Below, in pieces: positions 24,729 through 44,274 of a DNA stretch of 64,000 nucleotides. Position 1 is the stretch's first letter. Each line of letters begins with the position of its first letter. A model generated the notes under the pieces. That model was not told the DNA's origin and ran no database searches. It saw only the letters and a program-made list of their open reading frames with translations. The translations under genes and the position numbers were made by a program. The stretch spans positions 196,093-260,092 of the forward strand of contig CBDCVA010000001.1 in assembly GCA_965222935.1 (NCBI GenBank), given 5' to 3'. Source of the DNA: Candidatus Latescibacterota bacterium. GTDB lineage: Bacteria; Latescibacterota; CBDCVA01.

Positions 24729-25646
24729 GTGGCTAACGTGGGCGAGCGGCAGCGACTGGCGGGCAGCGACGATCTGGCCTCCGTGGGTACCGACGTCCGG
24801 CGGGACGAAAACCTGAGGGGCCTCACCACGCTCGGCGTCGGTGGCCCGGCCGCCGTGGTCGTCCGCGCGCGGGAGGAGGCCGACATCATCCGCGCGCTCG
24901 CCCTTGCGGAGCGGTCCGGGCGGCCCGTTCGCGTCATCGGTGCGGGTACAAATCTCCTGGCCAGCGATGCGGGTTTCGACGGAGTCATCATCAAGCTGGG
25001 GCGCGGCTTTCGGGGAGTACAGCGGGAGGGTCATTGCGTCGAAATCGGCGCCGCTGCGACGATGAGCCGGCTGGTGGATTTCTGTTTACGGGAGGGGCTC
25101 ACCGGCGTGGAATTCGCCGGTCAGATCCCTGGTACCGTCGGGGGAGCGATCGCGGGCAATGCTGGCGCCTATGACGGTGAGACCGCCGATCGGCTTGAGG
25201 CAGTGTGGGGGGTGGACATCCCCACGCGCCAGCCCGTCCGCCTTTCGCGCGAAGAGATCACTTTCGCCTACCGGAACTCCACATTGCGGAATCGGGTGGT
25301 GATTACGCGGGCCCGTTTCGCTCTGGAGCCCGGGGAAGATGCCGCCAGCCGCGAACGGGTCCGCGTGCTTAGGGGCCATCGCACGGCGACGCAGCCGATG
25401 GGTGTCCGGACGGCGGGTTGTGTGTTCAAGAATCCGCCCGGTCTTTCCGCCGGGGCGCTGTTGGACCGCGCCCAACTCAAAGGCCAAGCCGTGCGCGACG
25501 CCGCCATGAGCGAGACGCATGCGAATTTTCTGATCAACCTCGGCGCTGCGACGGAGGTCGATGTCCGTGAGCTCATCGCTCTTGCCCGGCGCGTGATCCT
25601 CCATAGCTACGGCATTCGCTTGGAATTGGAGCTTGTGGAGCTATGA
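24729..25646 (+). CDS. murB: UDP-N-acetylenolpyruvoylglucosamine reductase
   Basis: FAD-binding domain (LTTLGVGG...), MurB C-terminal domain. Confidence 0.85.
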   Translation: MANVGERQRLAGSDDLASVGTDVRRDENLRGLTTLGVGGPAAVVVRAREEADIIRALALAERSGRPVRVIGAGTNLLASDAGFDGVIIKLGRGFRGVQREGHCVEIGAAATMSRLVDFCLREGLTGVEFAGQIPGTVGGAIAGNAGAYDGETADRLEAVWGVDIPTRQPVRLSREEITFAYRNSTLRNRVVITRARFALEPGEDAASRERVRVLRGHRTATQPMGVRTAGCVFKNPPGLSAGALLDRAQLKGQAVRDAAMSETHANFLINLGAATEVDVRELIALARRVILHSYGIRLELELVEL

Positions 25647-26452
25647 ACCGCGCACTGCCCTATGCCGGGTCCAGAGGTCCACGTCCCATGGCTCGCCGGG
25701 CGAGGCGAGGGCGCCGGTTTGTACGCTACATCGTCGGAGCGGTCGGCGTGGGGGCCGCACTTGCGGCTCTGGCCTGGTCCGGACATGCTCTGCCTTCAAG
25801 CCTGGCTCAAATGCCATTGTTTTCGGTCGGGCGCGTTGAGGTCGTGGGCGCGGGCCTGCCTGAGGTCGGCGAGCTTGTCGCGGCTGCGGGGCTGGCAGCA
25901 CAGGAGCGCGTCGGACAGCTCGATCTTCAGGCCGCTGCGGAGCGCCTTCTCGCCCTGCCTCCCGTGCGAAAGGCCGATCTCACCTGGCTCCCTCCGGACC
26001 GCGTGCGCATACGCATCACCAAGCGGGAGCCCGTGGCGCTCCTCAGCCTCGACCAAACCTACGGCGTGGACCGCGATCTATGGTGCTTCACGATTCCTTC
26101 CGATGCTCTTCCCACGGGGCTTCCAATGGTCACGGGCGTGAGTCCGTCCGGTGTGGCCCCCAGTGGGCGTTTGACCAACCCAGCGGTGGGGGAGGCGATT
26201 CGCGTTGTCGATGCACTTGGGGCAACGGATCCGGCACTGGCGTCGCAAGTGGCCGAGGTCGCCATGACGCCGGAGGGCATTGATCTCGTGCTTCGGAACG
26301 GGCGTGTGCGCCTTGGGCGCGGTCGATACGAGGACAAGCTCCGGGTCGTATTGATGGTACTGGATGACCTGGCGAGCCGAAGTGAGACATATGCCGAGAT
26401 CGATGTGCGGTTCAGGGAGTTGGCCGTGGTTCGGGGTCCTCGAGGCGCGTAA
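25643..26452 (+). CDS. ftsQ: Cell division protein FtsQ (POTRA domain)
   Basis: Basic N-terminus, one TM segment, POTRA-like region; canonical position before ftsA. Confidence 0.7.
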   Translation: MNRALPYAGSRGPRPMARRARRGRRFVRYIVGAVGVGAALAALAWSGHALPSSLAQMPLFSVGRVEVVGAGLPEVGELVAAAGLAAQERVGQLDLQAAAERLLALPPVRKADLTWLPPDRVRIRITKREPVALLSLDQTYGVDRDLWCFTIPSDALPTGLPMVTGVSPSGVAPSGRLTNPAVGEAIRVVDALGATDPALASQVAEVAMTPEGIDLVLRNGRVRLGRGRYEDKLRVVLMVLDDLASRSETYAEIDVRFRELAVVRGPRGA

Positions 26453-26468
26453 TCTTTAACCGCGCAAG

Positions 26469-27716
26469 GTGTGGGAGAAAGCGAGCGGCGTGGCAAAGTC
26501 GGGCGATCTGATTGTCGGGCTGGACATCGGGACGACGAAGACGCTCTGCGTCGTGGCCGAGGCGGTCCCGGACGAGCTCCCCAGCGTCATTGGCATGGGT
26601 GTGTCATCCACAGCCGGGCTCTACAGTGGTTCCGTGGTGAACATGGAGGACACCGTGGGGGCCATCCGAGAGGCTGTGGCTAGCGCCGAACGGATGGTCG
26701 GTGTGCAGGTCGAACAGGTTTACGCCGGCATCATGGGCGAGCACGTTTACGGCCATAATGGCCGCGGCACCGTCGCGGTGTCAGGTCCGGGCAATGAGAT
26801 CACCTCTGGCGATGTCGACCGGGTCTTGGCGCAGGCCGAGGCCATCACTCTTCCCGATGGACGAGAGGTCCTTCACGTGCTCCCCCGGCAGTTCATCGTA
26901 GACGACCAGCAAGGCATCCGCGAGCCCTTGGGCATCACGGGCACCCGCTTGGAGGCCGATGTGCACGTGGTCACCGCTCAGAGCACCCCGATCTTGACTC
27001 TCGAGAGAGGCGTCGAGCGGGCGGGCTTCGCCGTGCGTGGGATGGTGCTTGAACCTTTGGCGTCGAGCTATGCCGTCCTCACACCGGACGAGAAGCAGCT
27101 AGGCTGCGTTCTGGTCGACATCGGCGGCGGCACGACCGACCTGGCCGTGTTCTTCCGCGGGAGCATCTGGCACACGGCCGTCGTGCCTCTGGGTGGCAAT
27201 AACGTGACCGAGGACATTGCTGTGGGTCTGGAGATGCCGGTCGCCTGCGCGGAGAAGCTGAAGTGCGAAAGGGGTAGTGCGCTGGCCGAAATGGTCGACG
27301 ATGACGAGCAGATCGAGATAGAAGCGTCGGGCGACGACGGAGCACGGTCGGTCTCCCGCACGTTTCTGGCTGAGATTATCGAAGCCCGGTTGGAGGAGAT
27401 TTTCCAGCTCACATGCAGGGAGCTCCGACGAGCCGAATGCATCGAACTGTTGGGGAGCGGTATGATCCTGACCGGAGGCGGCACCCTTCTGGATGGGGTG
27501 GTGGATGTGGCGCGGAAGATTTTTGGGCGCTCGGTGCGGGTTGGGACGCCTCGGGGCGTGCGCATGGCCCGCGATGACTTCGCGAGTCCCATGTACGCGA
27601 CCGGCGTCGGGCTCGTGGTCTATGGATTCGAAGCGCTCAGCGTCGAAGGCCGCCAGGGGCGTGTACGCAAGGGTTGGTCGGGGCGATTGGGCGCATGGCT
27701 TCGCGATTTCTTCTAG
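26469..27716 (+). CDS. ftsA: Cell division protein FtsA
   Basis: Actin-like ATPase (VGLDIGTTK, DIGGGTTD). Confidence 0.9.
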   Translation: MWEKASGVAKSGDLIVGLDIGTTKTLCVVAEAVPDELPSVIGMGVSSTAGLYSGSVVNMEDTVGAIREAVASAERMVGVQVEQVYAGIMGEHVYGHNGRGTVAVSGPGNEITSGDVDRVLAQAEAITLPDGREVLHVLPRQFIVDDQQGIREPLGITGTRLEADVHVVTAQSTPILTLERGVERAGFAVRGMVLEPLASSYAVLTPDEKQLGCVLVDIGGGTTDLAVFFRGSIWHTAVVPLGGNNVTEDIAVGLEMPVACAEKLKCERGSALAEMVDDDEQIEIEASGDDGARSVSRTFLAEIIEARLEEIFQLTCRELRRAECIELLGSGMILTGGGTLLDGVVDVARKIFGRSVRVGTPRGVRMARDDFASPMYATGVGLVVYGFEALSVEGRQGRVRKGWSGRLGAWLRDFF

Positions 27717-27775
27717 CGGCGCCACCGCGGCCTGCTGCGGTTGGCAAAGAGAGCTACGACGCGCGGGGGTGGACG

Positions 27776-28942
27776 ATGTCGGATGACGATAGCACGAGGA
27801 TCGAGATGGCCGAGCATCCTGGCAACGGTGCTCGCATGAAAGTGGTGGGGGTCGGTGGCGCTGGTGGGAACGCGGTGGATCGCATGATAGCGGCCCATCT
27901 TGCGGGCGTCGAGTTCATCGCGATCAATACGGACCTTCAGGCCCTCGGCCAGTCGCGGGCACCCACCAAGGTGCAGATCGGCACCAACCTCACCCGGGGG
28001 CTCGGCGCTGGCGGTGACCCCCAGGTGGGCCGCGAGGCTGCCCTCGAAGATCGCGAGACCGTTGTCGAGATCCTAGATGGATCGGACATGGTCTTCGTCG
28101 CCGCTGGGATGGGCGGCGGCACCGGCACAGGCGCTGCGCCCCTCGTCGCCGAGGTGGCGCGGGAACATGGGGCCTTGACCGTTGGGATCGTGACCAAGCC
28201 CTTCGTCTTCGAGGGAGCCAGGCGGCTCGACCAGGCCCAGGAGGGGATCGATGCCCTGAAGGCTCGCGTGGACACCTTGATCGTCATTCCCAATCAGCGC
28301 CTTATGTTGGTCACCGACGAGAACACGACGCTTCTGGACGCCTTCAAGCTGGCTGACGAAGTGCTGCTTCACGCCACACGCGGCATCTCCGATATCATTG
28401 CCATACCGGGCCTGATCAACCGCGATTTCAATGACGTCAAGGCGGTGATGCACGATATGGGCGATGCCCTCCTTGGGACTGGCACCGCTAGTGGGGAGAA
28501 ACGCGCGATCGATGCGGCCCAGCGGGCGGTCAAGAGCCCTCTCCTAGAGGAGATCTCGATCGAGGGTGCAAAGGCCGTTCTCCTCAACATCTCGGCGGGT
28601 CCCAACCTCAAGCTCGCCGAGGTGGATGCCGCTGCAACGGTTGTCAGCGAGGCAGCGGGTGCTGGGGCCGGCATTTTCATGGGCGCCGTCATCCGGGAAG
28701 ATATGGCCGAAGAGCTGACCGTCACCGTGATCGCCACTGGCTTCGGGGATGAGGAGGATGACCTTCCTGGGTCGCCCTCCTCTGAGGTGGTGCAGGAAGA
28801 GATCGGAGTACCGGCTATCGAGCGCAAACCGACTGCTAAGATCGAAAAGTTGCGGCGAAGCCGCTTGCAGGGATCGTCCACGAAAGAGGCGAAAGACCAG
28901 TTGGACGTCCCGGCCTTTATACGGAAGCGACTTCGCTCGTAG
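27776..28942 (+). CDS. ftsZ: Cell division GTPase FtsZ
   Basis: GVGGAGGNAV tubulin signature, T7 loop, conserved C-terminal tail DVPAFIRKR. Start chosen at ATG 27776; the track ORF 27674 has a 5' extension overlapping ftsA. Confidence 0.9.
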   Translation: MSDDDSTRIEMAEHPGNGARMKVVGVGGAGGNAVDRMIAAHLAGVEFIAINTDLQALGQSRAPTKVQIGTNLTRGLGAGGDPQVGREAALEDRETVVEILDGSDMVFVAAGMGGGTGTGAAPLVAEVAREHGALTVGIVTKPFVFEGARRLDQAQEGIDALKARVDTLIVIPNQRLMLVTDENTTLLDAFKLADEVLLHATRGISDIIAIPGLINRDFNDVKAVMHDMGDALLGTGTASGEKRAIDAAQRAVKSPLLEEISIEGAKAVLLNISAGPNLKLAEVDAAATVVSEAAGAGAGIFMGAVIREDMAEELTVTVIATGFGDEEDDLPGSPSSEVVQEEIGVPAIERKPTAKIEKLRRSRLQGSSTKEAKDQLDVPAFIRKRLRS

Positions 28943-28951
28943 GGGGGAGGC

Positions 28952-28965
28952 GCCCGCCGTCGGGC
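28952..28965. terminator. GC hairpin (gcccg-ccgt-cgggc) in the 24-nt gap between convergent ftsZ and rpmB
   Basis: Inverted repeat seen in sequence, followed by gtt; overlaps the rpmB 3' end, so tentative. Confidence 0.2.
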
Positions 28966-28966
28966 G

Positions 28967-29209
28967 TTACGCCTCGGCGGCGGCAACTTCGGGCACGAAC
29001 CCTTCTTCCCGCTCAGGCTTGCCGCGCTTGAGCACGAGCCCGCTGCGCAAGCAGCGCGTGCATACCTTCAGAATCACCGGGCTCTTACCTACCATCGCGC
29101 GCACGCGCTGAAGGTTGGGCCGGAAGACGCGCTTGGTCCTGCGCTTGGAGTGGCTGACGTTGTTGCCACTCATCGGCCCCTTGCCGCAGATGTCACACCT
29201 TCGTGCCAC
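28967..29209 (-). CDS. rpmB: 50S ribosomal protein L28
   Basis: 80 aa, [34 protein letters not shown]. Confidence 0.9.
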
Positions 29210-29296: not shown

Positions 29297-30064
29297 TCAC
29301 GGTTCCGCGACGGCCCACCGCCCGTTCTCCTGCGCGAGTTGTCCGATGGGCACCGCCGGGTCGTGGCTCCAGATGACGAGCGCTTTCCGCTCGTGTGCCT
29401 CGGCCAGAAGGCGCTTCTTTTGCGCCAGTGTCTCCCGAGGATGCGTGTCATAGGCCATGATGTAGGCGGGCTGCAGGTGATGGGTTGTCGGAGCCATCTC
29501 AGCGACAAATAGCGCCGTCTCTCCTTCGGACTCCACCCAGACCACCTGATGCCCTTCGGTGTGTCCGCCCGTGAGCTCGACGCGGACGCCGGGGACGATC
29601 TCGGCATCTCCGTCGACGAGGTTCAGAAGGCCCATCTCGCGGAGGGACTCGAAATTATCAGGGAGGTAAGTCCCGCGCGTGATCTCGTTGGGATGGGTCG
29701 CCAGCTCCCATTCGGTGCGCTGAAGGACGTGGCGTGCGCTCGGGTAGGTGGGCACTACGTTTCCCCCTGAATCGCGGCGCGTCAGCCCGCCTGCGTGGTC
29801 TATGTGAAGGTGGGTGGGGATGACCAGCGTGACCTCCTCGGGCGAGATCCCGAAGGCCCCCAAAGCAACCTCGAGTGGTGGCGAGCCATCGAGCCCGTAG
29901 ATGTCCACAAGCTTGGGTGAGAGCTTCCGTCCGAAGCCGCTATCCATTAGGATCAGGTGCTCATCCGATCGGATGAGGGCGCAGTTGAGCCCGAGCGTGA
30001 TCCGATTCCGATCGTCGGCGGGGCACGACCGGGACCAGATGGCCTTGGGGATGATTCCGAACAT
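29297..30064 (-). CDS. MBL-fold metallo-hydrolase
   Basis: HLHIDHAGG metallo-beta-lactamase motif. Confidence 0.7.
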   Translation of the reverse strand: MFGIIPKAIWSRSCPADDRNRITLGLNCALIRSDEHLILMDSGFGRKLSPKLVDIYGLDGSPPLEVALGAFGISPEEVTLVIPTHLHIDHAGGLTRRDSGGNVVPTYPSARHVLQRTEWELATHPNEITRGTYLPDNFESLREMGLLNLVDGDAEIVPGVRVELTGGHTEGHQVVWVESEGETALFVAEMAPTTHHLQPAYIMAYDTHPRETLAQKKRLLAEAHERKALVIWSHDPAVPIGQLAQENGRWAVAEP

Positions 30065-30174
30065 GGTCCCGCCGTCGAGGCGAAAGGTGCCGTCGGAGGG
30101 TACAGCTAGTTCGAACGCCCCGACCCGCCGCCAAGCGCGGACGGTGCTCGAGGAAGATGCAACCTGCGGCTCGG

Positions 30175-31068
30175 CTATGCCTTCGTCTCCTCGGCTAGCT
30201 CGCGCCTGCTTTTTCGGCCCAGGTAGATGCGCTCTGGGTCCACTTCCGCGCGCAGGGTCTTGAGTTCCTCGTAGGTGGGAGGCTCCAGTTCACGAGTGGC
30301 CGAGACATCCAAGTCCCAGCCCGTGTTCTCCTTGACCATCGCGGCGGCTGCGCCCGGGAAGATATAGTCCAGCCTCAACTCGGGATCGTCGGGCGGGTTG
30401 TTGCGCAGGATGCACAAATCCGAGATGACCACGAGTGCTCCGCCGCGCGTGAGGCCGTAGTCGGTCTTGCGCTCGCCTTTCGGTCCGCGCATCCCGGCGA
30501 TGGAGGTGATGTACTCCGCGCGCTCGGGGAAGCGCCTTTTTTCATGGACCATCATCACGAGCAAGAGATCGGACAGGGTTGCGATGTTGTTCGCGCCGCC
30601 CGAGCCCGCGAAGCGCACGGCCGGACCGCGTCCTGTCTCCGATACCCCCGCTGGCCAATAGCCGCCGATGGCCGTCGAGTTCAGGTTGCCGTAGCGGTCG
30701 CACTCAGCGCCCCCCAGGATGCCCACGGTGCAGTATCCTCGCTGCGCCGTGGTGCCGAAGGTGTCAGCCATGTTGCTCACCGTCGATGCCTTCAGGCACC
30801 CGCGGGGGTCCGAGACCGCAATGGGTAAGTGCTCGATCCTAGGGCCGACGATGCCCGCCTCCATGATGATAGTGCAGTGGGGCGCGGTGGTCTTCTGCGC
30901 CAGCATCGAGCCCAGAAGGGGCAGCCCCGTCCCCGCGAAGATGAAGCTGTGGTCGGGCGTCTCGCGCGAGGTCGCCACAGCGAGGAGCTCCATCGTCGTG
31001 AAATCCTCCGGCCCCAGGCCCTGTTTCTCAAGGTATTGCTCGTATTCCGCGTCGGTCATCTCGGGCAT
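30175..31068 (-). CDS. CoA-transferase family I subunit B (glutaconate/3-oxoacid CoA-transferase beta-like)
   Basis: 297 aa with the GctB-type fold pattern; paired with an A subunit immediately upstream. Confidence 0.65.
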   Translation of the reverse strand: MPEMTDAEYEQYLEKQGLGPEDFTTMELLAVATSRETPDHSFIFAGTGLPLLGSMLAQKTTAPHCTIIMEAGIVGPRIEHLPIAVSDPRGCLKASTVSNMADTFGTTAQRGYCTVGILGGAECDRYGNLNSTAIGGYWPAGVSETGRGPAVRFAGSGGANNIATLSDLLLVMMVHEKRRFPERAEYITSIAGMRGPKGERKTDYGLTRGGALVVISDLCILRNNPPDDPELRLDYIFPGAAAAMVKENTGWDLDVSATRELEPPTYEELKTLRAEVDPERIYLGRKSRRELAEETKA

Positions 31069-31083
31069 CTTGGTCTCTCCCCC

Positions 31084-32184
31084 TCACATCTGCCGCGCCA
31101 GATCGGGCCTGTAGCCGTAAGCTGTCTGCGCCCTCAGTTCGAACAAGCGCTTCATGCCCACCACGCTGCTCAAGTACTCCCAATCGTCCTCGGTCCTCTG
31201 CACGTGGTCGGCCCACCAGGCCCGGACCTCCTCCTTGGGTCGACGGTTGGTCCGCCCGTAGCTCACAAACCAGTCCCAGTCGTAATCGTAGTAATTGGGC
31301 ACCGCGGAAGGGTACCCGCCGAAGGGCTGCTCGACGATGGCGTCGGTGATATGCGCGGGGATGTGGTTGCGCTCCGGCGCCGCCCGCAGCTCCTCCTCCG
31401 GCACGACCTGCTCGCATTCGACGATCAGCCGCTTGCCAGCGATCGACTGCTCGATGTCCGGCCCGAAAATGCCCTCCAGGCGGACCGTTCCCTCCTCGCC
31501 GACGCGTTGCGCCCGCAAGAGGACCACTTCCGGCATCACCGGCGGCACCAGGACGATCTTGATCCCCGGGTTGCCCGTGTACTTGGTGGACGTGCGCGCG
31601 CCCTCCAGGTCGTTGGTCTGGTTGGCCGTCTTATCGCCATCTTCGAAGTCGTGGGGTCTCAAACCCCAGCCGTCGAAAGGATCGTCGACGACATGGTACT
31701 TCTTCGGCGGGATGCGCGGATCGATCCACGAGCCGTCGGGGTTCTTGCCTCGCAGACCCGCCTTGCCCAGCGTGTCGTAGGTCAGGATGTCGCTCCCGAG
31801 CTCACTGACCAATGGTGCGAACGGCCAGCCGTACTTGCCCGCCACCGTCCGCGTGGCATAGCCGTAGTTGGAGTAGTCCTCCACCAACTCGATCTCGCCT
31901 TCCTCGATCCCTCGGCGGACGCTATTCGCCACGGGTTGAATGCCTTCCAGCCCTAGGTACGTCGATTCGATCCGCTTCACCAGCCCACACCCAGCCAGGG
32001 CTTCCGTGCATGCCGTCCCACCGTTCATCGTCACGTACAGGTCACCGATCCCCTGCCGGATGATTTCCCGTATCAGGGTGAAGGGCCGCCGCGTGTAGCT
32101 GAACCCGCAGGGACACACCTGCGTCCCCGGTTTGATGTACTTTTGGACCGCCTCGTGGGCCGTCATCAGCTTTTCGCTGGCCAT
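31084..32184 (-). CDS. CoA-transferase family I subunit A (GctA-like)
   Basis: 366 aa; GctA-like N-terminus (MTAHEAVQKYIKPGTQV...). Confidence 0.65.
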   Translation of the reverse strand: MASEKLMTAHEAVQKYIKPGTQVCPCGFSYTRRPFTLIREIIRQGIGDLYVTMNGGTACTEALAGCGLVKRIESTYLGLEGIQPVANSVRRGIEEGEIELVEDYSNYGYATRTVAGKYGWPFAPLVSELGSDILTYDTLGKAGLRGKNPDGSWIDPRIPPKKYHVVDDPFDGWGLRPHDFEDGDKTANQTNDLEGARTSTKYTGNPGIKIVLVPPVMPEVVLLRAQRVGEEGTVRLEGIFGPDIEQSIAGKRLIVECEQVVPEEELRAAPERNHIPAHITDAIVEQPFGGYPSAVPNYYDYDWDWFVSYGRTNRRPKEEVRAWWADHVQRTEDDWEYLSSVVGMKRLFELRAQTAYGYRPDLARQM

Positions 32185-32210
32185 TGAGCGCTCGTCACCT
32201 CCTTGTCGTC

Positions 32211-33560
32211 TCAGTTCGCCGCTTTCTGGCGCCGGTCCTCTACCCGCGCGCTCGCCGTCTTGCCCTCGCCCGCCGTCACGCGGGGAAGCGCGTCCGGCTC
32301 CAGCAACGTCACCTCCTTGGGCGTGACACCCAGGGCGCTCTGGAGCGAGTCGGTGATCCTCGCTGTCAGACCCTGTACAGCCCTAGCGTCGCCAAGGAAT
32401 TGCGCGTCTTTGACCTCGATCTTGAGCGTCAACCGGTCCAGCCCCCGCTCGTCGGTATCGATGAACATCCGGAAGTTGGCGCCCACCTCGGGATACTGCA
32501 CCAGGACGCTCTCCACCTGGCTAGGGAAGACGATGAGCCCCCCCATGCTGATGGCATCGTCGCTCCGTCCCTTAATGGCGGCGATGCGCGGGTGCTGACG
32601 GCCGCAGGCGCATGGCTCCCAGGTCAGGGCTGAAAGATCGCGGCTGCGGTAGCGGATGAACGTTGTGCCCTCGAACCCGAGCGTCGTCCAGACGAGCTCG
32701 CCCTCCTTGCCGTCGTCCACCGGCTCGCCCGTCTGGGGGTCGATGCACTCACACAAAAACGCGTCGGCCCACGTGTGCATCCAGTTCCGCTCCTGACATT
32801 CGCAGCTCATCCCCGGACCCAGGAACTCGGTCATCCCGAATTCATCGTACGCCGTGATTCCGAAGAGATCTTCGATCCGTTCCCGCGTAGACCACGGCCA
32901 CGGCTCCGCGCCGAAAAGCCCAATGCGCAGACTCTTCTTCTCAGCGAAGTTGATGCCCTTCTCGACCGCCCGCTGGCCGACGTAGACGGCGAACGACGGC
33001 GTCATGCAGAACGCCGTCACGTTCAGGTCGTCCAAGAGCTCTATCTGCCGGTCGGTCTGGCCGCTGCCAGTGGGGATGGCCATGACACCCATCTTCGTCG
33101 CGCCGTAGTGGAATCCGAAGCCGCCCGTGGGCAGACCGTAGCCATAGGCGTTGAGTAGACTGTCGCCGGGACGCAGGCCCACCATCCACAGTTCGCGCGC
33201 GTTCAGTTCTCCCCAGAAGTCCAGGTCCTTCCGCGTCGCGAAGACGAGAACGGATTTCCCGGTCGTGCCCGACGTCCCGTGTACCTCGACCACCTCGTCG
33301 CGCGGACTCGTCACCATGCCAAAAGGATAGGCTGTCCGGACGGTCGCCTTCTCCAAAAAGGGAAGCTTCCGGATGTCTTCGATGCCCTTGATGTCGTACG
33401 GCTTGACGCCGTACGCGTCGTAGAGCTTGCGGTAGAAGGGCGATGTGTGGTAGACTTTGTTCACCACGGCCTTCAGCCGACCCACCTGGAGCGCTTTGAG
33501 ATCCTTGGTGCTCAGCGTCTCGACCGCTTCGTTGAAATACTGGCTGTCCCTTGCCATCAA
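32211..33560 (-). CDS. Phenylacetate-CoA ligase family protein (PaaK-like / coenzyme F390 synthetase-like adenylate-forming enzyme)
   Basis: 449 aa; PaaK family architecture (TSGTTGKSVLVF P-loop-like motif, YGMTE, C-terminal lid). Confidence 0.8.
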   Translation of the reverse strand: MMARDSQYFNEAVETLSTKDLKALQVGRLKAVVNKVYHTSPFYRKLYDAYGVKPYDIKGIEDIRKLPFLEKATVRTAYPFGMVTSPRDEVVEVHGTSGTTGKSVLVFATRKDLDFWGELNARELWMVGLRPGDSLLNAYGYGLPTGGFGFHYGATKMGVMAIPTGSGQTDRQIELLDDLNVTAFCMTPSFAVYVGQRAVEKGINFAEKKSLRIGLFGAEPWPWSTRERIEDLFGITAYDEFGMTEFLGPGMSCECQERNWMHTWADAFLCECIDPQTGEPVDDGKEGELVWTTLGFEGTTFIRYRSRDLSALTWEPCACGRQHPRIAAIKGRSDDAISMGGLIVFPSQVESVLVQYPEVGANFRMFIDTDERGLDRLTLKIEVKDAQFLGDARAVQGLTARITDSLQSALGVTPKEVTLLEPDALPRVTAGEGKTASARVEDRRQKAAN

Positions 33561-33590
33561 CGCTGCCCCCTCCAGGCTATAGGTTCGCGC

Positions 33591-33875
33591 TTACCGCTCC
33601 CCAACATACTTACCGACTACCCTGGCACCTAGCGCTCGCCCCAACGTCTCGACGCACGACACGACCGTGTCGAGGTATCGGTCCTTGGTCAACACCTCCA
33701 CGCTCGCGTCCGGGTTGAAGTACAGGGTCGGCCATTCTTCCTCGTGTGGAATCAGGCGCAGGCCCCGCTCTCCCAGGTCGAGGACCTGCCCGAACGGTGC
33801 AAGCGCCCGATGCAACTCCGCACGGCTGAGAGGGGTCTCGAAGTGGTACGTCAGAACCTCGAAATCGGTGTACAT
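33591..33875 (-). CDS. Small hypothetical protein (possible ACT-like domain partner of the PaaK-like ligase)
   Basis: 94-aa ORF directly upstream of the ligase on the same strand; ACT assignment is an inference from size and context only. Confidence 0.35.
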   Translation of the reverse strand: MYTDFEVLTYHFETPLSRAELHRALAPFGQVLDLGERGLRLIPHEEEWPTLYFNPDASVEVLTKDRYLDTVVSCVETLGRALGARVVGKYVGER

Positions 33876-33900: not shown

Positions 33901-34257
33901 CTAGCGCGATGTGCGCTGCCGTGCTTCCCAGAGGGCCCTCAGCGCCTCCTCGATCGCTTCCAGGCTCCCTTCGAGCGTCCCCAGGTGCGCCTCCAACTCG
34001 ATCTGTGCGCGGCGCAACTCGTCTTCGATGACGTCCAGATCGGCCCAGTCGGGCAGCCCCTCCGCGACGCGGGCCATCGCCTGCTCCAGGGCCTCCGACA
34101 CACGGCCGCCCGGGCCCCTCGCTTCGTGAAGCGCCGTCCGAAAACTCTGGAGCGTCCAAGCTGCCTTTAGGACTTCCTCCCAGACGGCGCGCGCCGCCTC
34201 GGGGGACGATTCACCCACGGCCTCCTGGTGCGGTTTAGGTCGCGCTTGTGCACTCAT
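33901..34257 (-). CDS. Hypothetical coiled-coil protein
   Basis: 118-aa Glu/Ala/Leu-rich ORF. Confidence 0.35.
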   Translation of the reverse strand: MSAQARPKPHQEAVGESSPEAARAVWEEVLKAAWTLQSFRTALHEARGPGGRVSEALEQAMARVAEGLPDWADLDVIEDELRRAQIELEAHLGTLEGSLEAIEEALRALWEARQRTSR

Positions 34258-34280: not shown

Positions 34281-34357
34281 TGGTGGGCGATACCGGATTC
34301 GAACCAGTGACCTCCTGCTTGTAAGGCAGGCGCTCTCGCCATCTGAGCTAATCGCCC
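34281..34357 (-). tRNA. tRNA-Val (anticodon UAC), CCA encoded
   Basis: Hand-folded cloverleaf. Acceptor GGGCGAT/ATCGCCC, D-stem GCTC/GAGC, anticodon stem CCTGC/GCAGG with loop CUUACAA (U33, A37), T-stem ACTGG/CCGGT, T-loop TTCGAAT, discriminator A plus CCA. Confidence 0.85.
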
Positions 34358-34408: not shown

Positions 34409-35278
34409 TCATCCCTCGGCCTGTGCCGCGGGTCCCACGGAAATGCTAAGGCCGGCCACCGTCCACATGTTCTCCTGGTAGCTCGCCCCGCCCACGACGG
34501 TCGCGTAGGCGCCCTCGGACACCGAGCCCGGCGACGAATCGAAGAATCCGCTGATATCCACGATATCCATCACGATGCCGTCAAGCGTCCAGAAAAGCCT
34601 CCGGTCGTCGTCGATGACCCCGAGACCCCAGCGATGGCCCCAGGGGGTGCCATCGCCAAATGGATCATGGCGCCACGCCAGACAGGTCGCGGGCGGTGTC
34701 CTGACGGGACATCGCACGGTTATCGTCGATACCATCTTCGCCGCGTCCGCCTCCCCCTCCCAGAATCGAATCTTCTTTTGGTCTTCCTCCAGCATGTTGC
34801 GGTTGAGGACGAACCAGAGGCCCGCTTTGCTCCACCAGTCGCAATGAATCTGAACGACGCGATCGTGGACGCGGTCGTTTTCGCTTCCCACCAGCCCCCG
34901 AAAGCTCCCGATGGCCAGACAGAATCCCATGAGATAGACGCCCATATGCGGGTCCTCGTGTTTGGCGGGCGTTCCGTCGTTGGCCAAGTACTGGTTGAGG
35001 AAAACGCCATTGTGCGCGTAGTCCACGAAGGTCAACTCAAAGTGATTCCTGCCGGCCAGGTTCGGCTGGAAGACGCGGTTTTTGGAGGCGAAGCCATTGT
35101 AGGCCATCACCCCGGGTCCCGGTGACAGGGGTGAACTCGCTCTGATCCGAGCTGTCCCGTTTCCCGCGTCGGTCCGCACGATGTCGCCGCGAGACGGGCG
35201 TACAACAGGCGTCCACGTGGAGAGATCGAACTCACCCGTGAAGTCATCCGATAACTGGACCGCCAACTCTTGCGTCAC
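34409..35278 (-). CDS. Hypothetical protein (289 aa, Trp/His/Asp-rich; no recognised family)
   Basis: Long ORF with coding-like composition next to the tRNA; no family recognised, possibly ConA-like/glycoside-hydrolase-like. Confidence 0.45.
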   Translation of the reverse strand: MTQELAVQLSDDFTGEFDLSTWTPVVRPSRGDIVRTDAGNGTARIRASSPLSPGPGVMAYNGFASKNRVFQPNLAGRNHFELTFVDYAHNGVFLNQYLANDGTPAKHEDPHMGVYLMGFCLAIGSFRGLVGSENDRVHDRVVQIHCDWWSKAGLWFVLNRNMLEEDQKKIRFWEGEADAAKMVSTITVRCPVRTPPATCLAWRHDPFGDGTPWGHRWGLGVIDDDRRLFWTLDGIVMDIVDISGFFDSSPGSVSEGAYATVVGGASYQENMWTVAGLSISVGPAAQAEG

Positions 35279-35317: not shown

Positions 35318-35578
35318 CTAAGGTTTCGGTTTCTTCCGGCCCCCTGGCTCCGCTTGCTCACGGCCGCTGCGTGAGAGGCGAGCCAGAAGCGCCACCGGGA
35401 TCAGCACACAATAGCCAAGCACCAAGAGGATCGGCCCGATAGTCAGCGATGAGAAGCTATCCGCCGGGCCGATGGATAGGAAGATGTAACCCAGGGCGAT
35501 AGCACCAAGCCCAGCAGCGAAGGTGAGCCAGTGCTTGGGCCCGTATGGCAATGAGGAGCGGTCGTCTCGTCTGGGCAT
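35318..35578 (-). CDS. Small two-TM membrane protein
   Basis: 86 aa, two hydrophobic helices, basic C-terminus. Confidence 0.35.
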   Translation of the reverse strand: MPRRDDRSSLPYGPKHWLTFAAGLGAIALGYIFLSIGPADSFSSLTIGPILLVLGYCVLIPVALLARLSRSGREQAEPGGRKKPKP

Positions 35579-36442: not shown

Positions 36443-36629
36443 CGCTGGCCTCCTCTGCCCATCCCTGAGCGGCTCGACATCTCTCGTCGCGTTCGCGACC
36501 GCAACTCAGGGTACACTTCGCGCCCACCTATTGCAACGCCGGGCTCGGCCAGCAGGTTGACGGCCTCGCGCCCTCGTACCACATTGGTCTGCATCACAAA
36601 CGACGCACAATGAAAGCTAGGAGGGGGCG

Positions 36630-38931: not shown

Positions 38932-40653
38932 ATGAGACAGTCCGACCTGCTTGTGCGGATCGGGGGCGAAGGCGGTGAAGGCGTCATCTCTTCGGGTGAG
39001 ATCCTCACCAAGGCGATGGCGCGGGCCGGCTGGAACGTGTTCACGTTTCGCACCTATCCCGCTGAGATTCGCGGGGGTGTGGCGATGTTTCAGTTGCGCG
39101 TGGCCTCGCAACCCATCTACTCGCAGGGCGGTAAAGCCGACCTGTTCATTGCCTTCAATGACGAGGCTCTGGAGCATTACCTTCCCGAACTGCGTCCCGG
39201 TGGTACGCTGTTGTTCGATCCTGAGCAGGCACACGCCCCTGAAGAGGGCGCCTACCACGTCCTTCCAGTGCCCCTCAACCGGCTGGCGCGCGAGGCCGGC
39301 AGTGTCCTGACCAAGAACATCGTCGCTGTCGGCGCGCTTTCCAAGGCGTTCGACGTGGACCCGGAGATCTTCCGTCAGCTCATCCGGGACCAGTGGCTGC
39401 GCAAGGGCGAGCGGGTCGTCGAGATGAACTACCGCGCGCTCGAAGTCGGTCGCCAGGCCGTCGTCGAGGCAGGGGGCGCCGAGGGAGTCGCTCTGGAAGC
39501 TGCCCCGCCCAACGGCGAGGAGCTCATGATCATCAGCGGCAACCAGGCGGTGGGCTTGGGCGCTATCGTTGCCGGCTGTCGCTTCTGCGCCGGATATCCC
39601 ATCACGCCTGCGACGCCGCTGTTTGAGTTTCTGATTGCAGAATTGCCGAAGTTCGGGGGAGGGACGTTCCAGGCCGAGGACGAGATGGCGGCACTGGGAG
39701 CGTGCCTGGGCGCCTCGTTCTCGGGCATCAAGGCGATGACTTGCACGTCGGGTCCTGGCATTTCACTGATGAGCGAACTCATCAACCACGCCTCGATGCT
39801 TGAGCTGCCCGTCGTCATCGTGGACGTCCAGCGCGCAGGACCCTCGACGGGCATGCCCACCAAGACTGAGCAGGGTGATCTGAAGTTCGCCATCTACGGC
39901 ACGACGGGGGAATCCCCCAGGATCGTGCTGGCTCCCACGTCGGTGGAGGACTGCATTTATCAGACGGTCCGCGCGTTCAACCTGAGCGAGCGTTATCAGA
40001 TGCCGGCCATCATCCTCAGCGACCAGGCGATGGCATATAGGACCCAGAACGTGAAGTTGCCCGACCTGTCTATGATCGATGTGGATGAGCGGATCCTGGC
40101 CGGCGATGGCGAGCTTAACGATTACAGGCGCTTCAGGCTTACCGAAACGGGCGTCTCGCCGATGACCGTTCCGGGGATGGAGGGCGGCGCCTATTTGGCG
40201 ACAGGTCTCGAGCACGACGAGACGGGCGCGCCCAAGTACACTCCTGAAGCTCACAAGACGATGACGGCCAAGCGGTTTCGAAAGCTGACTACACTCGCCG
40301 ACGAACTCGCCTCGGATCCCCAGCCGTACTACGGTTCAGATAAGGCTCGCATCGGCGTGATCGGCTGGGGCTCAACCGAAGGCGCGATCCGCGAGGCTCG
40401 ATACAGGGCGGAGGAGGCCGGCATTCCGATCAAGCACTTGCATCCGAGGGTGGTCTCTCCGCTGCCGGAGAAGCGCATCGCTGAGTTTCTCCGGGGACTA
40501 GAGACGATCATCATCCCCGAGGAGAACTTCACCGGGCAGTTCGCGCATTTCGTAAAGGCGAAGTTCGGGATCAGGCCCATAGAAGTTCACAAGGCGGAGG
40601 GGATCCCTCTCACACCCGAAGAAATCTTAGACGCGATTGAGGAGCATGCCTAA
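38932..40653 (+). CDS. 2-oxoacid:ferredoxin oxidoreductase subunit alpha with fused gamma domain (set 1)
   Basis: N-terminal gamma-type domain (GGEGGEGVISSGEIL); the alpha domain belongs to the pyruvate/2-oxoglutarate ferredoxin oxidoreductase family (KorA-like). Confidence 0.85.
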   Translation: MRQSDLLVRIGGEGGEGVISSGEILTKAMARAGWNVFTFRTYPAEIRGGVAMFQLRVASQPIYSQGGKADLFIAFNDEALEHYLPELRPGGTLLFDPEQAHAPEEGAYHVLPVPLNRLAREAGSVLTKNIVAVGALSKAFDVDPEIFRQLIRDQWLRKGERVVEMNYRALEVGRQAVVEAGGAEGVALEAAPPNGEELMIISGNQAVGLGAIVAGCRFCAGYPITPATPLFEFLIAELPKFGGGTFQAEDEMAALGACLGASFSGIKAMTCTSGPGISLMSELINHASMLELPVVIVDVQRAGPSTGMPTKTEQGDLKFAIYGTTGESPRIVLAPTSVEDCIYQTVRAFNLSERYQMPAIILSDQAMAYRTQNVKLPDLSMIDVDERILAGDGELNDYRRFRLTETGVSPMTVPGMEGGAYLATGLEHDETGAPKYTPEAHKTMTAKRFRKLTTLADELASDPQPYYGSDKARIGVIGWGSTEGAIREARYRAEEAGIPIKHLHPRVVSPLPEKRIAEFLRGLETIIIPEENFTGQFAHFVKAKFGIRPIEVHKAEGIPLTPEEILDAIEEHA

Positions 40654-40655
40654 CT

Positions 40656-41537
40656 ATGACCGCTCTCGTGGCAACACCGGCTCCGACCCGAAGTCCTGCC
40701 AGCTATAAAAGCGATCTCAAGCCCATCTGGTGCCGCGGTTGCGGCGATTTCGGGGCGCTCTCAGCCTTCTATAAGGCGCTCTCCACACAAAACGTCGATC
40801 CCAACGATCTCGTCTTCGTCAGCGGCATCGGCTGCTCCGGGCGTTTCCCCCACTTCGTTGAGACCTACAGCTTTCACTCGACCCACGGCAGAGCGCTTCC
40901 CGTGGCCACGGGGCTCAAGGTGGCGCGCCCGGAGCTTCCGGTGGCGGTGGTAGGCGGCGACGGCGACGGACTGGCCATCGGCATGGGGCACATCCCTCAC
41001 GCCGCACGGCGCAACGTTGACATCACTTACGTCCTTCTGGACAACGAGATCTATGGGCTGACCAAGGGACAAAGCTCGCCTACGACGCCCTTCGGCGCCC
41101 ATACCCCCGGGGGCATGGGGGCAACGAAGGATGGGCATTGGGAAGAGAGGCTGGACCCGTTGGCCATCTACATTGCCTCGGGGGCGACCTTCGTCGCCTG
41201 CGGCTTCACCGGCGTTCCAGCCCAACTGGCCGGCATCTTCTCGGCGGCGCTGGCCCACAAGGGCTTTTCCATCGTTCATACGTACAGCCCGTGCACGACC
41301 TTCAATCACTTTCTGACCTTCGACAGCATCAAGGAGCGCCTCGGCCAGATCCCCGAGGACCACGACCCCACCGACCGGCTGGCTGCGATGCGCTATGCCC
41401 TCGATCACGAACAGATCTGGACCGGCATATACTACCAGGTCGAGCGGCCGACGCTGGATGGCATTGTGGATGCCCAGCGGCGCGAGGTCGGGGATCGGCG
41501 GACCGCGCTCTTGGACCTCTTGAGGGGGTTTGAATAG
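40656..41537 (+). CDS. 2-oxoacid:ferredoxin oxidoreductase subunit beta, TPP-binding (set 1)
   Basis: CPGCGDFG motif and TPP-binding GDGD...N pattern (KorB-like). Confidence 0.85.
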   Translation: MTALVATPAPTRSPASYKSDLKPIWCRGCGDFGALSAFYKALSTQNVDPNDLVFVSGIGCSGRFPHFVETYSFHSTHGRALPVATGLKVARPELPVAVVGGDGDGLAIGMGHIPHAARRNVDITYVLLDNEIYGLTKGQSSPTTPFGAHTPGGMGATKDGHWEERLDPLAIYIASGATFVACGFTGVPAQLAGIFSAALAHKGFSIVHTYSPCTTFNHFLTFDSIKERLGQIPEDHDPTDRLAAMRYALDHEQIWTGIYYQVERPTLDGIVDAQRREVGDRRTALLDLLRGFE

Positions 41538-41645
41538 CCGAAGGAGCCGGGTGCGTGAGTTGTGCGGCATCGCGCCTGGCGGGTGCCTGGCATACGTAGT
41601 GGCGAATATACAAATCATGGCGAAACGATCCCGGAGTCGAGTCCT

Positions 41646-43409
41646 ATGCGAGAAGAACTAACGCTTGGAATTGGCGGCGCTGCAGGCGAAGGTATCGGAG
41701 CACCTGGCAATGCGGTAGGTCAGCTCTGCGCCCGCCTCGGGTTGCACGTGTACTCCTATAACGAGTACCAGTCCTTGGTCAAAGGCGGGCACATCTGGCT
41801 GCGCATTCGGATGTCCAAGACGAAGGTCGAAAACCATGGCGATCACCTCAACGTCGCGCTCGCCTTCAATCAAGACACCCTCAATCGGCATGCTCAAGAG
41901 GTAGAGCCGGGCGGGGCCGTCATCTTTAACGGGGGCAAGCTCAGCCTCGAGGGACTGCAACTTCAAGAGGACGTGACGCCTATCCCGCTCCCTATCACGG
42001 AGATTATGGAACCCTTTGGACGGCTACCGGCGATCATGCAGAACACGGTCATGATTGGCGCTGTCATGTGGGTCTTGGGCCTCGATTTCCCGGTCCTCAA
42101 GGAGTCCATCCGCGAAGAGTTCCTGGGACGCGGCAAGGGCGAGGAGGTGGCTAACACCAACGCCGATCTAGCTCAGGCGGGGTACGACTATGCCCGGTCT
42201 CAGTATCCGCACCTGGGCGATGACTGGGGGGAGTTCTCACGGGTGGGCAGGGCGGTCGTCACCGGCAATGAGATGTTCGGTTTCGGCGCCTTGGCCGCGG
42301 GATGCGCTTACTACACAGCTTATCCGATGACGCCAGCCTCGGGCATCCTTCATTTGCTGGCCAAGTACGGGCCGCGCCACGGGATGGTAGTGAAGCAGAT
42401 GGAGGACGAGATCGCTGTGCTCAACTCGGCCATCGGTGCTGGCTTCGCGGGAGTGAGAGCGATGTGCGGCACCTCCGGCGGCGGGTTCGCCTTGATGACG
42501 GAGGCCGTGGGCATGGCGGGGATGACAGAGACGCCAGTCGTGATCGTGGAATGCCAGCGCGGCGGCCCGTCCACGGGGCTACCTACCAAGACCGAGCAGG
42601 GCGACCTCAATCAGGCCTACGGGGCCTCTCAGGGTGATTACCCCCGTGTGATCTTTGCTCCCACCGACGCGATCGACTGCTTCAATGCGATCCCCGAAGC
42701 CTTCAACCTGGCCGAGCGCTGGCAGATCCCCGTGATCGTGTTGTCGGACCTCTATCTCTCCGAGCATAATGAGACGATCGACCCCGAGGCCGTGAACTTC
42801 GCGGTCGAGATTGATCGCGGCGAGATTGTCAGAGAGCTTCCGCCCGAGAACGGCTATCTACGTTTCCGCCATACCGCCTCGGGTGTGTCGCCGCGCGTGT
42901 TGCCCGGGACCCTGGGTGGCGTCCATACCACGGCCACGGACGAGCACGATCAGCGCGGCGCCCTCATAAGCGATGAGTACACCAATCCGCCCGAGCGCAT
43001 CAAGATGATGGACAAGAGGATGCGGAAGATGGAGGGTATTTTACGCGAGGTGCCTCCGCCCGTCTTGGAGGGCCCTGCAGAGGCGGATGTCACGCTGATC
43101 GGGTGGGGATCCACAACGGGGCTGATTCGAGAGGCCATCGGGCAACTCGCGGAGACCGGCGTGACCGCGAACCATGTGCAGTTCCGCTACCTCGTTCCCT
43201 TCCATACCGACGAGGCCCGGGTGATTCTGGAGCGGGCACGCTTCACCATCATGGTGGAGGTGAATTACAGCGGACAGTTCGAGCGTCATCTGCGCGCCGA
43301 GACGGGTTTGAGCGTGGACGCTCACGTGCGGAAGTACGATGGCGAGCCCATGGAACCGGCTTACCTAAAGGACCGAATACTGGAGGTGCTGAATGTCCCC
43401 GTCAGTTGA
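41646..43409 (+). CDS. 2-oxoacid:ferredoxin oxidoreductase subunit alpha with fused gamma domain (set 2)
   Basis: Paralogue of 38932-40653 (IGGAAGEGIGAPG... gamma domain, alpha domain); ATG at 41646. Confidence 0.85.
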   Translation: MREELTLGIGGAAGEGIGAPGNAVGQLCARLGLHVYSYNEYQSLVKGGHIWLRIRMSKTKVENHGDHLNVALAFNQDTLNRHAQEVEPGGAVIFNGGKLSLEGLQLQEDVTPIPLPITEIMEPFGRLPAIMQNTVMIGAVMWVLGLDFPVLKESIREEFLGRGKGEEVANTNADLAQAGYDYARSQYPHLGDDWGEFSRVGRAVVTGNEMFGFGALAAGCAYYTAYPMTPASGILHLLAKYGPRHGMVVKQMEDEIAVLNSAIGAGFAGVRAMCGTSGGGFALMTEAVGMAGMTETPVVIVECQRGGPSTGLPTKTEQGDLNQAYGASQGDYPRVIFAPTDAIDCFNAIPEAFNLAERWQIPVIVLSDLYLSEHNETIDPEAVNFAVEIDRGEIVRELPPENGYLRFRHTASGVSPRVLPGTLGGVHTTATDEHDQRGALISDEYTNPPERIKMMDKRMRKMEGILREVPPPVLEGPAEADVTLIGWGSTTGLIREAIGQLAETGVTANHVQFRYLVPFHTDEARVILERARFTIMVEVNYSGQFERHLRAETGLSVDAHVRKYDGEPMEPAYLKDRILEVLNVPVS

Positions 43410-44274
43410 AATCCTGCCTGTCAAGGATTATAAAGGACTGGTAGACCCCGACTGGTGCCCCGGCTGCGGCGACTTCGGGGTACTCCGGGCGCTGCAAACG
43501 GCCGCCAGCCAGTTGGCGATCCACCCTCATCGGCTCGTGGCCGTCTCCGGCATAGGCTGCTCTTCGAATCTGCCCGGGTTCATTCACGCGTACGGTTTTC
43601 ACAGCCTGCACGGTCGTGCGCTCCCCGTAGCAACGGGCATCAAGCTGGCCAACCCCGATCTCAACGTCGTTGTGGCCACGGGTGACGGGGATGGCTACGG
43701 GATCGGCGCGGGTCACTTCGTCCACATCCTGCGGCGGAACGTGGACATGACCATGATCGTGATGAACAACCAGATCTATGGGCTCACCACCGGCCAGGTG
43801 TCGCCCACGAGCGAGAAGGGAATGAAGAGCAAGTCCACCTTGGGCGGCACGTTGGAGGAAGCGTTCAATCCGCTGGCTCTTGCGCTTGCGGGCGGCGCCA
43901 CTTTCGTTTCCCGCTGCTTCTCGGGTGATGCCAAGCACATGGCCCAGGTGCTCAAGCGCGCTATCAGCCACAGGGGCTTTAGTCTGGTGGACGTGTTCAG
44001 TCCCTGCGTCACCTACAACAAGATCAACACTTACGCGTGGTTCAAGGAGCGCGTCTACAAGCTCGAAGAGGCCGACCACGATACCAGCGCCTTTCAAACA
44101 GCGATGCTCAAGGCCATGGAGTGGGGGCATGAGATCCCGCTCGGGGTCTTCTACGAGCGCGAAGCGCCCACCTACGAGGATGAGGAACCAGCCCTGGCGG
44201 ACGGTCCGCTGCCTGAACGCGAACTGGGCATGACCCAGGAGCAGGGCATGGCGGTGCTCAAGGACTTCATGTAG
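43393..44274 (+). CDS. 2-oxoacid:ferredoxin oxidoreductase subunit beta, TPP-binding (set 2)
   Basis: CPGCGDFG plus TPP motif; overlaps the preceding alpha gene. Confidence 0.85.
   Translation: MSPSVEILPVKDYKGLVDPDWCPGCGDFGVLRALQTAASQLAIHPHRLVAVSGIGCSSNLPGFIHAYGFHSLHGRALPVATGIKLANPDLNVVVATGDGDGYGIGAGHFVHILRRNVDMTMIVMNNQIYGLTTGQVSPTSEKGMKSKSTLGGTLEEAFNPLALALAGGATFVSRCFSGDAKHMAQVLKRAISHRGFSLVDVFSPCVTYNKINTYAWFKERVYKLEEADHDTSAFQTAMLKAMEWGHEIPLGVFYEREAPTYEDEEPALADGPLPERELGMTQEQGMAVLKDFM

Follow-up and report, generated by a model that had tools for sequence, protein, structure and literature searches.

Organization of the Locus

The window analyzed in this study is a stretch of 64,000 nucleotides of Candidatus Latescibacterota bacterium DNA (contig CBDCVA010000001.1). 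The subject is a minus-strand gene module in this window, which encodes a PaaK-family acyl-CoA ligase, the two subunits of a predicted GctAB-type CoA-transferase and two small proteins. In the order of transcription, the first gene is orf118 (33901-34257; 118 amino acids), which was recognized with an iterated hidden Markov model (HMM). The second is orf94 (33591-33875; 94 amino acids), and the third is the ligase gene (32211-33560), whose product shows the Pfam domains AMP-binding and AMP-binding_C_2. The ligase has 449 amino acids when read from a TTG start, and 448 from the ATG at 33557, the start used by public gene callers. The GctA-like alpha subunit (31084-32184; 366 amino acids) and the GctB-like beta subunit (30175-31068; 297 amino acids) were both assigned by the Pfam domain CoA_trans (PF01144). 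An MBL-fold hydrolase gene (29297-30064; 255 amino acids; Pfam Lactamase_B) follows on the same strand, and next to it lies rpmB, i.e., the gene of ribosomal protein L28. A previous sequence-only reading of the stretch had listed five minus-strand open reading frames (ORFs), from orf94 to the MBL-fold gene. All five were found at exactly the positions given there, and the domains assigned to them were borne out by Pfam and NCBIfam. The orf118 gene lies upstream of the range covered by that reading.

The genes are closely spaced. The gaps are 25 nucleotides (orf118 to orf94), 30 (orf94 to ligase), 26 (ligase to gctA), 15 (gctA to gctB), 110 (gctB to the MBL-fold gene) and 87 (the MBL-fold gene to rpmB). 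No terminator-like hairpin was found on the minus strand of the intergenic gaps by the terminator scan. From this layout, it is plausible that the genes between 29297 and 34257 form one operon.

The upstream boundary of the module is a tRNA-Val(TAC) gene (34281-34357; minus strand), predicted by ARAGORN and Rfam with 72 bits, and Rfam reported only this tRNA in the region. The tRNA gene stands directly upstream of orf118 on the same strand and parts the module from two ORFs of 289 and 86 amino acids farther upstream.

Conservation of the Module across Genomes

Related loci were collected by a profile search with the alpha subunit in one genome per species (GTDB). The search returned 74 loci, and 71 of them belonged to the subfamily with an identity of at least 40%. 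These 71 species-level loci span about ten phyla, i.e., Latescibacterota, Chloroflexota (Chloroflexia and Ktedonobacteraceae), Acidobacteriota, Nitrospinota, Nitrospirota, Omnitrophota, metagenome-assembled genomes (MAGs) labelled Pseudomonadota, many Bacillota (Thermovenabulum, Tepidanaerobacteraceae, Desulfosporosinus, Defluviitaleaceae, Symbiobacteriaceae and Oscillospiraceae) and Desulfurellales, including the isolate Desulfurella acetivorans A63. A BMS3Abin14 genome was added through contig look-ups beyond the GTDB scan.

The distribution of the genes was nested. An orf118 homolog was found upstream of the gctA-like gene and on its strand in 56 of the 63 loci with enough upstream DNA, using the iterated HMM on six-frame ORFs. 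The stop codon of orf118 was placed within -60 to +150 nucleotides of the gctA start in 38 loci, and some of the genes overlap. The seven exceptions comprised one locus masked by a run of N, five Desulfosporosinus loci with a weakly matching ORF of 105-120 amino acids at the same position, and one Oscillospiraceae locus. Distant Gct-like paralog pairs, with 26-31% identity, had no orf118. The other genes were less frequent, i.e., orf94 in 32/71 loci, the ligase gene in 16/71 and the MBL-fold gene in 0/71. Therefore, the core of the conserved unit is the GctAB-type pair with orf118, which is often joined by orf94 and sometimes by the ligase, and the MBL-fold gene is outside it. The sequence-only reading had drawn the unit wrongly, as it had missed orf118, the partner gene with the widest conservation, and had included the MBL-fold gene.

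The ligase-bearing loci belong to Latescibacterota, Chloroflexota, Nitrospirota, unclassified MAGs, MAGs labelled Pseudomonadota and BMS3Abin14. Two gene orders were observed, i.e., orf118-orf94-ligase-gctA-gctB (the window, L007, L008, L017 and L019) and ligase-orf118-gctA-gctB-orf94 (MAGs of the BMS3Abin14 and Pseudomonadota type). The two orders point to selection on the linkage of ligase and transferase, rather than to shared ancestry of one arrangement. Ligase identity also tracked GctA identity, with 58-73% for the former and 56-80% for the latter. Twelve of the 16 ligase-bearing loci hold orf94 as well. Among the other four, three contigs stop at gctA, and L066 has 10 kb of downstream sequence with only a partial gctB match. 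The co-occurrence of ligase and transferase, to which the sequence-only reading had drawn attention in a single genome, is not due to chance, as it recurs in 16 loci of several phyla and in two gene orders.

These data also bear on the possibility that the two enzymes are independent neighbors, i.e., that the ligase landed by a housekeeping CoA-transferase operon for short-chain acids such as acetate. The 55 of 71 loci without a ligase agree with this explanation, as do the acetate-type and solute transporters that flank ligase-free versions. However, the linkage recurs from Latescibacterota to Nitrospirota in both gene orders, the ligase gene is embedded in the module, with the small genes on one side and gctA on the other, and ligase and GctA diverged in parallel. 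It is unlikely that the neighborhood is of this kind.

Some loci showed further peculiarities. The Desulfurellales-type loci (L084, L093 and L060) carry a third conserved small ORF of about 106-111 amino acids, without a Pfam match, right after gctB. Their transferase subunits are longer, i.e., about 408 amino acids for alpha and about 340-355 for beta, and a MaoC dehydratase gene and a MOFRL gene are placed upstream. A 2.4-kb contig binned as 'Desulfurococcales archaeon' (L064; JALVYU010000034.1) carries orf94-gctA-gctB of the Desulfurellales type, with the same long form of orf94. The archaeal label probably stems from wrong binning, and a true occurrence in archaea is less likely. In a metagenome contig of 4.2 Mb (L087; 11189-12196), the gctA-like gene is separated from the gctB-like gene by an inserted gene for a patatin-like phospholipase.

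CoA-Transferase Subunits

For both subunits, the best match in the PDB was GctA/GctB of Acidaminococcus fermentans (1POI), with E-values of 7e-39 for 1POI_A and 6e-39 for 1POI_B. AibAB (5MZW) and IpdAB (6CO6) were much weaker matches. Residue E70 of the beta subunit was aligned with the catalytic Glu of GctB, i.e., 'IIMEAG' against 'IIVESG'. The beta alignment consisted of 68 sequences: the window protein, GctB of 1POI and 66 different members of the family taken from the fetched loci. E70 was invariant in 68/68. In the same alignment, all three glycines of the loop G155-S-G-G158 were invariant, and the loop as a whole was invariant or nearly so. The glycine-rich G-x-G-G loop is the oxyanion hole of family I CoA-transferases.

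In glutaconate CoA-transferase (GCT), Glu54 of the beta subunit is the catalytic residue and forms the covalent CoA intermediate (PMC5380842). This residue is replaced in the non-transferase relatives, by Gly in IpdAB and by Cys in AibAB (PMC5380842; PMC7756340). Here, the G-S-G-G loop is conserved and so is E70, unlike its counterparts in IpdAB and AibAB, and the pair thus retains what marks a true transferase. By its sequence, the pair is a GctAB-type family-I CoA-transferase and is predicted to be active, in agreement with the type given to it by the sequence-only reading.

The pair differs from GctAB in several points. Residues of about 170-205 of the alpha subunit, i.e., a stretch of about 35-45 residues, have no counterpart in GctA and were left unaligned between two 1POI_A stretches. 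The stretch is conserved, and D168-P177 and Y202-G204 were invariant among 21 homologs. To our knowledge, GctAB-type family-I CoA-transferases are described as simple alpha/beta enzymes, whereas the genes of the pair studied here are nearly always accompanied by those of one or two small proteins. Genes of glutamate fermentation (hgd/gcd), i.e., 2-hydroxyglutaryl-CoA dehydratase and glutaconyl-CoA decarboxylase, were found neither in the window nor in the related loci examined.

AibAB, a 3-methylglutaconyl-CoA decarboxylase, and IpdAB, a steroid ring hydrolase, are likewise Gct-family heterodimers and work in specialized pathways. It is conceivable that the pair was recruited in the same style to a non-transferase reaction, i.e., decarboxylation or the hydrolysis of a ring or C-C bond, with new functions contributed by the small proteins and the acyl-CoA substrate delivered by the ligase. 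The Gct family has evolved such enzymes twice (5MZW and 6CO6; PMC5380842; PMC7756340), the alpha stretch and the putative extra subunits go beyond canonical GctAB, and a ligase alone would suffice for activation. Both known cases, however, lost the beta-Glu, which is invariant here together with the GSGG motif (68/68). Moreover, most loci are ligase-free, and there the enzyme depends on a thioester that it procures itself, as transferases do. Such a recruitment is therefore considered rather improbable.

No NCBIfam model names either subunit, and the nearest named relative is a protein of a Candidatus Latescibacterota MAG with 80% identity. In the literature, no study was found of this transferase subfamily or of a combination of ligase and Gct-type transferase. 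The subfamily is unnamed, and its chemistry is probably ordinary, i.e., CoA transfer with adenylation by the ligase.

Acyl-CoA Ligase

The ligase matched the PDB entries 4R1L, 2Y4O and 2Y27 with E-values between 1e-92 and 1e-104. The PaaK models TIGR02155 and NF041878 scored 395 and 401 bits, which is below their cut-offs of 646 and 700, i.e., about 60% of them. The F390 synthetase model TIGR03335 scored 148 bits, far below its cut-off of 459. The architecture is of the PaaK type, with AMP-binding and AMP-binding_C_2 domains, the P-loop TSGTTGK and the A10 Lys region. On these sequence features, the ligase clearly falls in the PaaK clade and not in the F390 clade. The sequence-only reading had called it PaaK-like and had placed it in the phenylacetate-CoA ligase/F390 family, and the PaaK-like call was upheld by this comparison.

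The enzyme shares the fold family, domains, P-loop and A10 Lys region with PaaK1 and PaaK2 of Burkholderia cenocepacia and with the Bacteroides thetaiotaomicron enzyme 4R1L. It differs from them by its scores under both equivalog cut-offs, by the lack of a paa operon and by residues of its pocket region. Three signatures were found in the module-linked ligases that were compared, which come from several phyla. The first, GYGL[P/A]TGGFGFHYGA, has Pro in all except L026 and L075, which have Ala. The second, YDEFGMTEFLGPG, was invariant, and the third, GAEPW[P/A]W, had one exception with Ala. At these places PaaK1, PaaK2 and 4R1L carry GYGLFTGGLG[A/I/F], D[I/S][Y/F]G[L/M][S/T]E and GAEP[W/H]T instead. 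The pocket Phe, i.e., F141 of PaaK1 and F146 of 4R1L, corresponds to Pro144 here, and every module-linked ligase in the comparison has Pro or Ala at this position. In addition, A147 of PaaK1 corresponds to Phe150 and Ile236 to Glu240, and both replacements are conserved in the module-linked subclade.

Phe146 of 4R1L lines the aryl pocket, and His takes its place in isophthalate-CoA ligase (PMC9516798). In our alignment, the position of Pro144 is that of Tyr164 of 2-hydroxyisobutyrate-CoA ligase, which is one of the two specificity residues of that enzyme (PMC8388817). The PaaK family includes ligases for non-aryl acids (PMC8388817). Because the family is known to hold such ligases and the pocket signatures differ, the module-linked ligases were treated as a distinct specificity subclade. 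Judged from these residues, phenylacetate is unlikely to be the substrate. Neither the window nor the contexts of relatives examined showed genes of the paa or benzoyl-CoA pathways at distances of up to about 10 kb.

Small Proteins orf118 and orf94

The two small proteins had no recognizable domains. The orf118 protein matched no Pfam, NCBIfam or PDB entry, either as a single sequence or as a profile, and orf94 matched no Pfam (E up to 0.01), NCBIfam or PDB entry. Profiles were built from 16 members for orf94 and from 20 diverse members for orf118. When searched against PDB and Pfam, both gave coiled-coil or chance matches only. Word-indexed homolog searches with either protein returned near-identical proteins only. 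These are two new protein families.

Small ACT-domain proteins are paired with PaaK-like ligases in anaerobes, and the presence of a small ORF beside a PaaK-family ligase is a feature shared with the module. The sequence-only reading had proposed orf94 as such an ACT partner and had suggested a model check. This idea was not supported. None of the 16 orf94 family members matched ACT in Pfam (E up to 1), and no ACT protein was among the Foldseek matches listed for the orf94 model, which is weak. The best Foldseek matches of this weak model were TBP-like half-domains, with TMq of 0.62-0.68 and E-values of at least 0.014. The model also departs from the beta-alpha-beta-beta-alpha-beta order of ACT domains, and although it is too weak to decide the matter, the idea probably fails on fold as well. 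The gene follows the transferase.

The last point was seen from gene neighborhoods. At least 12 loci, in which at least 2.5 kb upstream of gctA was checked, carry orf94 without a ligase, including all Desulfurellales, and this is also the case in Desulfosporosinus. A search of orf94 against 1.84 billion representative proteins gave 22 matches, almost all of them stand-alone proteins of 82-158 amino acids. Five of these were looked up in their contigs. One was followed by a module-type ligase with 66% identity, two stood in the order orf118 homolog, orf94 homolog, CoA_trans, CoA_trans without a ligase, one contig was too short, and one borderline match was beside an acetyl-CoA-synthetase-like gene. 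On genetics, orf94 clearly partners the transferase rather than the ligase. It is probable that orf118 and orf94 are accessory subunits, either structural or regulatory.

Other clues to the function of orf94 were followed. At L091 (2290-3291), a borderline orf94-like protein (P0141; E 3e-4) is encoded directly upstream of a gene whose product, judged by eye from its N-terminus, looks acetyl-CoA-synthetase-like. The case hints that the orf94 fold may accompany other acyl-CoA-forming enzymes. Gene fusions were considered as a clue and rejected, as the only cases were partial matches in two giant repeat proteins, which were judged spurious. A role as an acyl carrier in the style of citrate lyase or malonate decarboxylase is speculative and gained no support, as Pfam gave no CitD or MdcC match and the listed neighbors had no CitG/CitX-type domain.

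MBL-Fold Hydrolase

The MBL-fold protein contains HLHIDH, i.e., the metal-binding motif HxHxDH, in its translated sequence. It scored 188 bits with the YtnP-lactonase model, which is below the cut-off of 425, and the next families were AiiA, AidB and 4-pyridoxolactonase. The best PDB match was 3ESH (3e-41), followed by lactonases and organophosphate hydrolases. In NCBIfam and PDB, its best similarity was not to thioesterase or glyoxalase-II families. The gene is adjacent to the transferase genes only in near-identical contigs. By sequence it is a lactonase-like, lineage-specific neighbor, located between the conserved module and rpmB and outside of the former. The sequence-only reading had suggested a pathway thioesterase, and this suggestion is not supported, given the lactonase-like family (YtnP/AiiA; 3ESH) and the absence of the gene from 71/71 related loci.

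Genomic Context and Substrate

Transporter genes were found near the ligase-free versions of the module. In 11 Chloroflexota loci, the gene of an AceTr-type acetate-uptake transporter (129 bits; cut-off 50) is located just upstream of orf118-gctAB. A sodium:solute symporter (SSF) gene closely neighbors the module in 14 Bacillota loci; in some of them it immediately precedes orf118, and in others it comes right after gctB. From this context, the substrate is more likely an externally supplied carboxylate that is small or polar.

Genes for 2-oxoacid:ferredoxin oxidoreductases are near the module in some Bacillota. In MAGs of the BMS3Abin14 type, a pair like indolepyruvate oxidoreductase (IOR) lies about 4 kb from the module, and this is the sole aromatic hint. 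In the window, two tandem two-subunit 2-oxoacid:acceptor oxidoreductases (TIGR03710; 648 and 608 bits) are encoded at 38932-44274 on the plus strand. The module is possibly tied to the interconversion of 2-oxoacids and acyl-CoA. The oxidoreductases at 38932-44274 have fused gamma-alpha subunits and beta subunits, and are followed by genes for another MBL-fold protein and for a TRAP solute-binding protein of the DctP type.

Hydrolases of C-N bonds recur loosely near the loci, i.e., M24 (PepQ/creatinase-like), FmdA-like, isochorismatase-like and CN_hydrolase proteins. One MAG lineage and one Bacillota locus have the M24 gene next to the module, and in the window it is 2.4 kb away. It was considered as a module member and rejected, as the identities were only 23-31%.

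The sequence-only reading had suggested a CoA cycle on an aromatic or dicarboxylic acid. In its aromatic form, the acid would be phenylacetate, indoleacetate or hydroxyphenylacetate, with the 94-amino-acid protein as an ACT-like regulator and the MBL-fold protein as a thioesterase. The solved enzymes nearest to the ligase are PaaK enzymes (E 1e-104), and the IOR-like pair in the BMS3Abin14-type lineage and the 2-oxoacid oxidoreductases near the module in the window and some Bacillota would also suit such a cycle. Nevertheless, the PaaK equivalog scores of the ligase amount to only about 60% of the cut-offs, and the pocket Phe is replaced by Pro (Ala in some) in all module-linked ligases. No ACT signal was seen in the orf94 protein, whose gene is present in at least 12 loci that lack a ligase, the MBL-fold protein is lactonase-like and shared by no relative (0/71), and no paa or benzoyl-CoA genes were seen in any context examined. 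Taken together, an aromatic cycle is quite unlikely, and the labels 'phenylacetate-CoA ligase' and 'glutaconate CoA-transferase' at such loci probably give the wrong substrate.

Proposed Role of the Module

We lean slightly toward a reading in which the small proteins would be accessory subunits of the transferase, the ligase would prime, and the transferase would recycle CoA on a carboxylate other than phenylacetate. In this scheme, a ligase of the distinct PaaK subclade would have joined the module in this organism and in 16 other species. Using ATP, it would convert the free acid into the first acyl-CoA. A thioester, either of the product or of a donor, would then pass its CoA to the incoming acid by way of the transferase, and ATP would be spent on priming only.

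A biochemical precedent for this logic is known. In the caffeate respiration of Acetobacterium woodii, the ligase CarB primes the pathway, and the CoA-transferase CarA recycles CoA from the product to the substrate (PMC8085960). By analogy, the loop of the sequence-only reading, in which the ligase initiates and the transferase propagates, gains plausibility from CarB/CarA. The module differs from this system in that it contains neither reductase nor Etf genes. CarA belongs to another transferase subfamily and consists of one chain, CarB is not of the PaaK type, and we know of no small partner proteins of CarA and CarB.

Several points weigh against the reading. The 55 of 71 loci without a nearby ligase mean that a shared substrate of both enzymes is not required. 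The matches of the promoter and terminator scan were at background level and are uninformative on co-transcription. The activities of all family members are predicted from sequence and gene context, and Ile236 of PaaK1, which is Glu240 here, is a putative residue of the ligase pocket. Binding of the small proteins to the transferase is likewise putative. Their AlphaFold2 (AF2) models are weak because the alignments held three close sequences. The orf118 model has three helices at low confidence, i.e., a predicted local distance difference test (pLDDT) score of 61. The orf94 model has the topology beta-alpha-beta4-alpha-beta and reached a pLDDT of 80 in only one of five models.

A stronger form of this reading is doubtful. 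It would make orf118 and orf94 obligatory subunits of a new class of multi-subunit CoA-transferases, with the ligase as a docked priming module. In that case, the small proteins might tether the enzyme to the uptake transporter or the ligase, i.e., vectorial activation at entry, or else they might act as a gate for the covalent Glu-CoA intermediate. If it were true, this would be the first Gct-type transferase that needs extra subunits, and it would establish a new class of substrates along with two new families of proteins.

Should the small proteins prove to be subunits, the textbook architecture of CoA-transferases would be incomplete. Many anaerobes and soil bacteria would then also have a widespread but unannotated route for the activation of some common carboxylate. 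Direct testing is feasible, as the isolates Desulfurella acetivorans A63 (locus near 1.726-1.728 Mb of CP007051.1) and Desulfosporosinus spp. carry ligase-free versions.

Neighboring Genes

Downstream of the MBL-fold gene, the end of the dcw cell-division cluster (25643-29209; ftsQ, ftsA and ftsZ; plus strand) converges on rpmB on the minus strand. The catabolic-looking module is thus wedged beside core housekeeping genes, i.e., the dcw end and rpmB.

On the other side, the 289-amino-acid ORF (34409-35278; minus strand) is placed between an RraA-like gene and the tRNA gene, and had no Pfam or NCBIfam match. The 86-amino-acid ORF (35318-35578; minus strand) has copies in L001, L088 and L089 without a precomputed Pfam match. 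This second ORF has the same two genes on either side of the pair, i.e., both ORFs are placed between the RraA-like gene and the tRNA gene, and both are kept in these three close relatives.

At 36585-36602, the window is without a segment of about 936 nucleotides that bears a gene for an ankyrin-repeat protein of 136 amino acids. In L001, which is 99.7-99.9% identical to the window, this segment separates the RraA-like gene from the M24 gene, and the ankyrin-repeat gene is also present in L088 and L089. The difference of about 936 nucleotides is an insertion/deletion polymorphism between strains.

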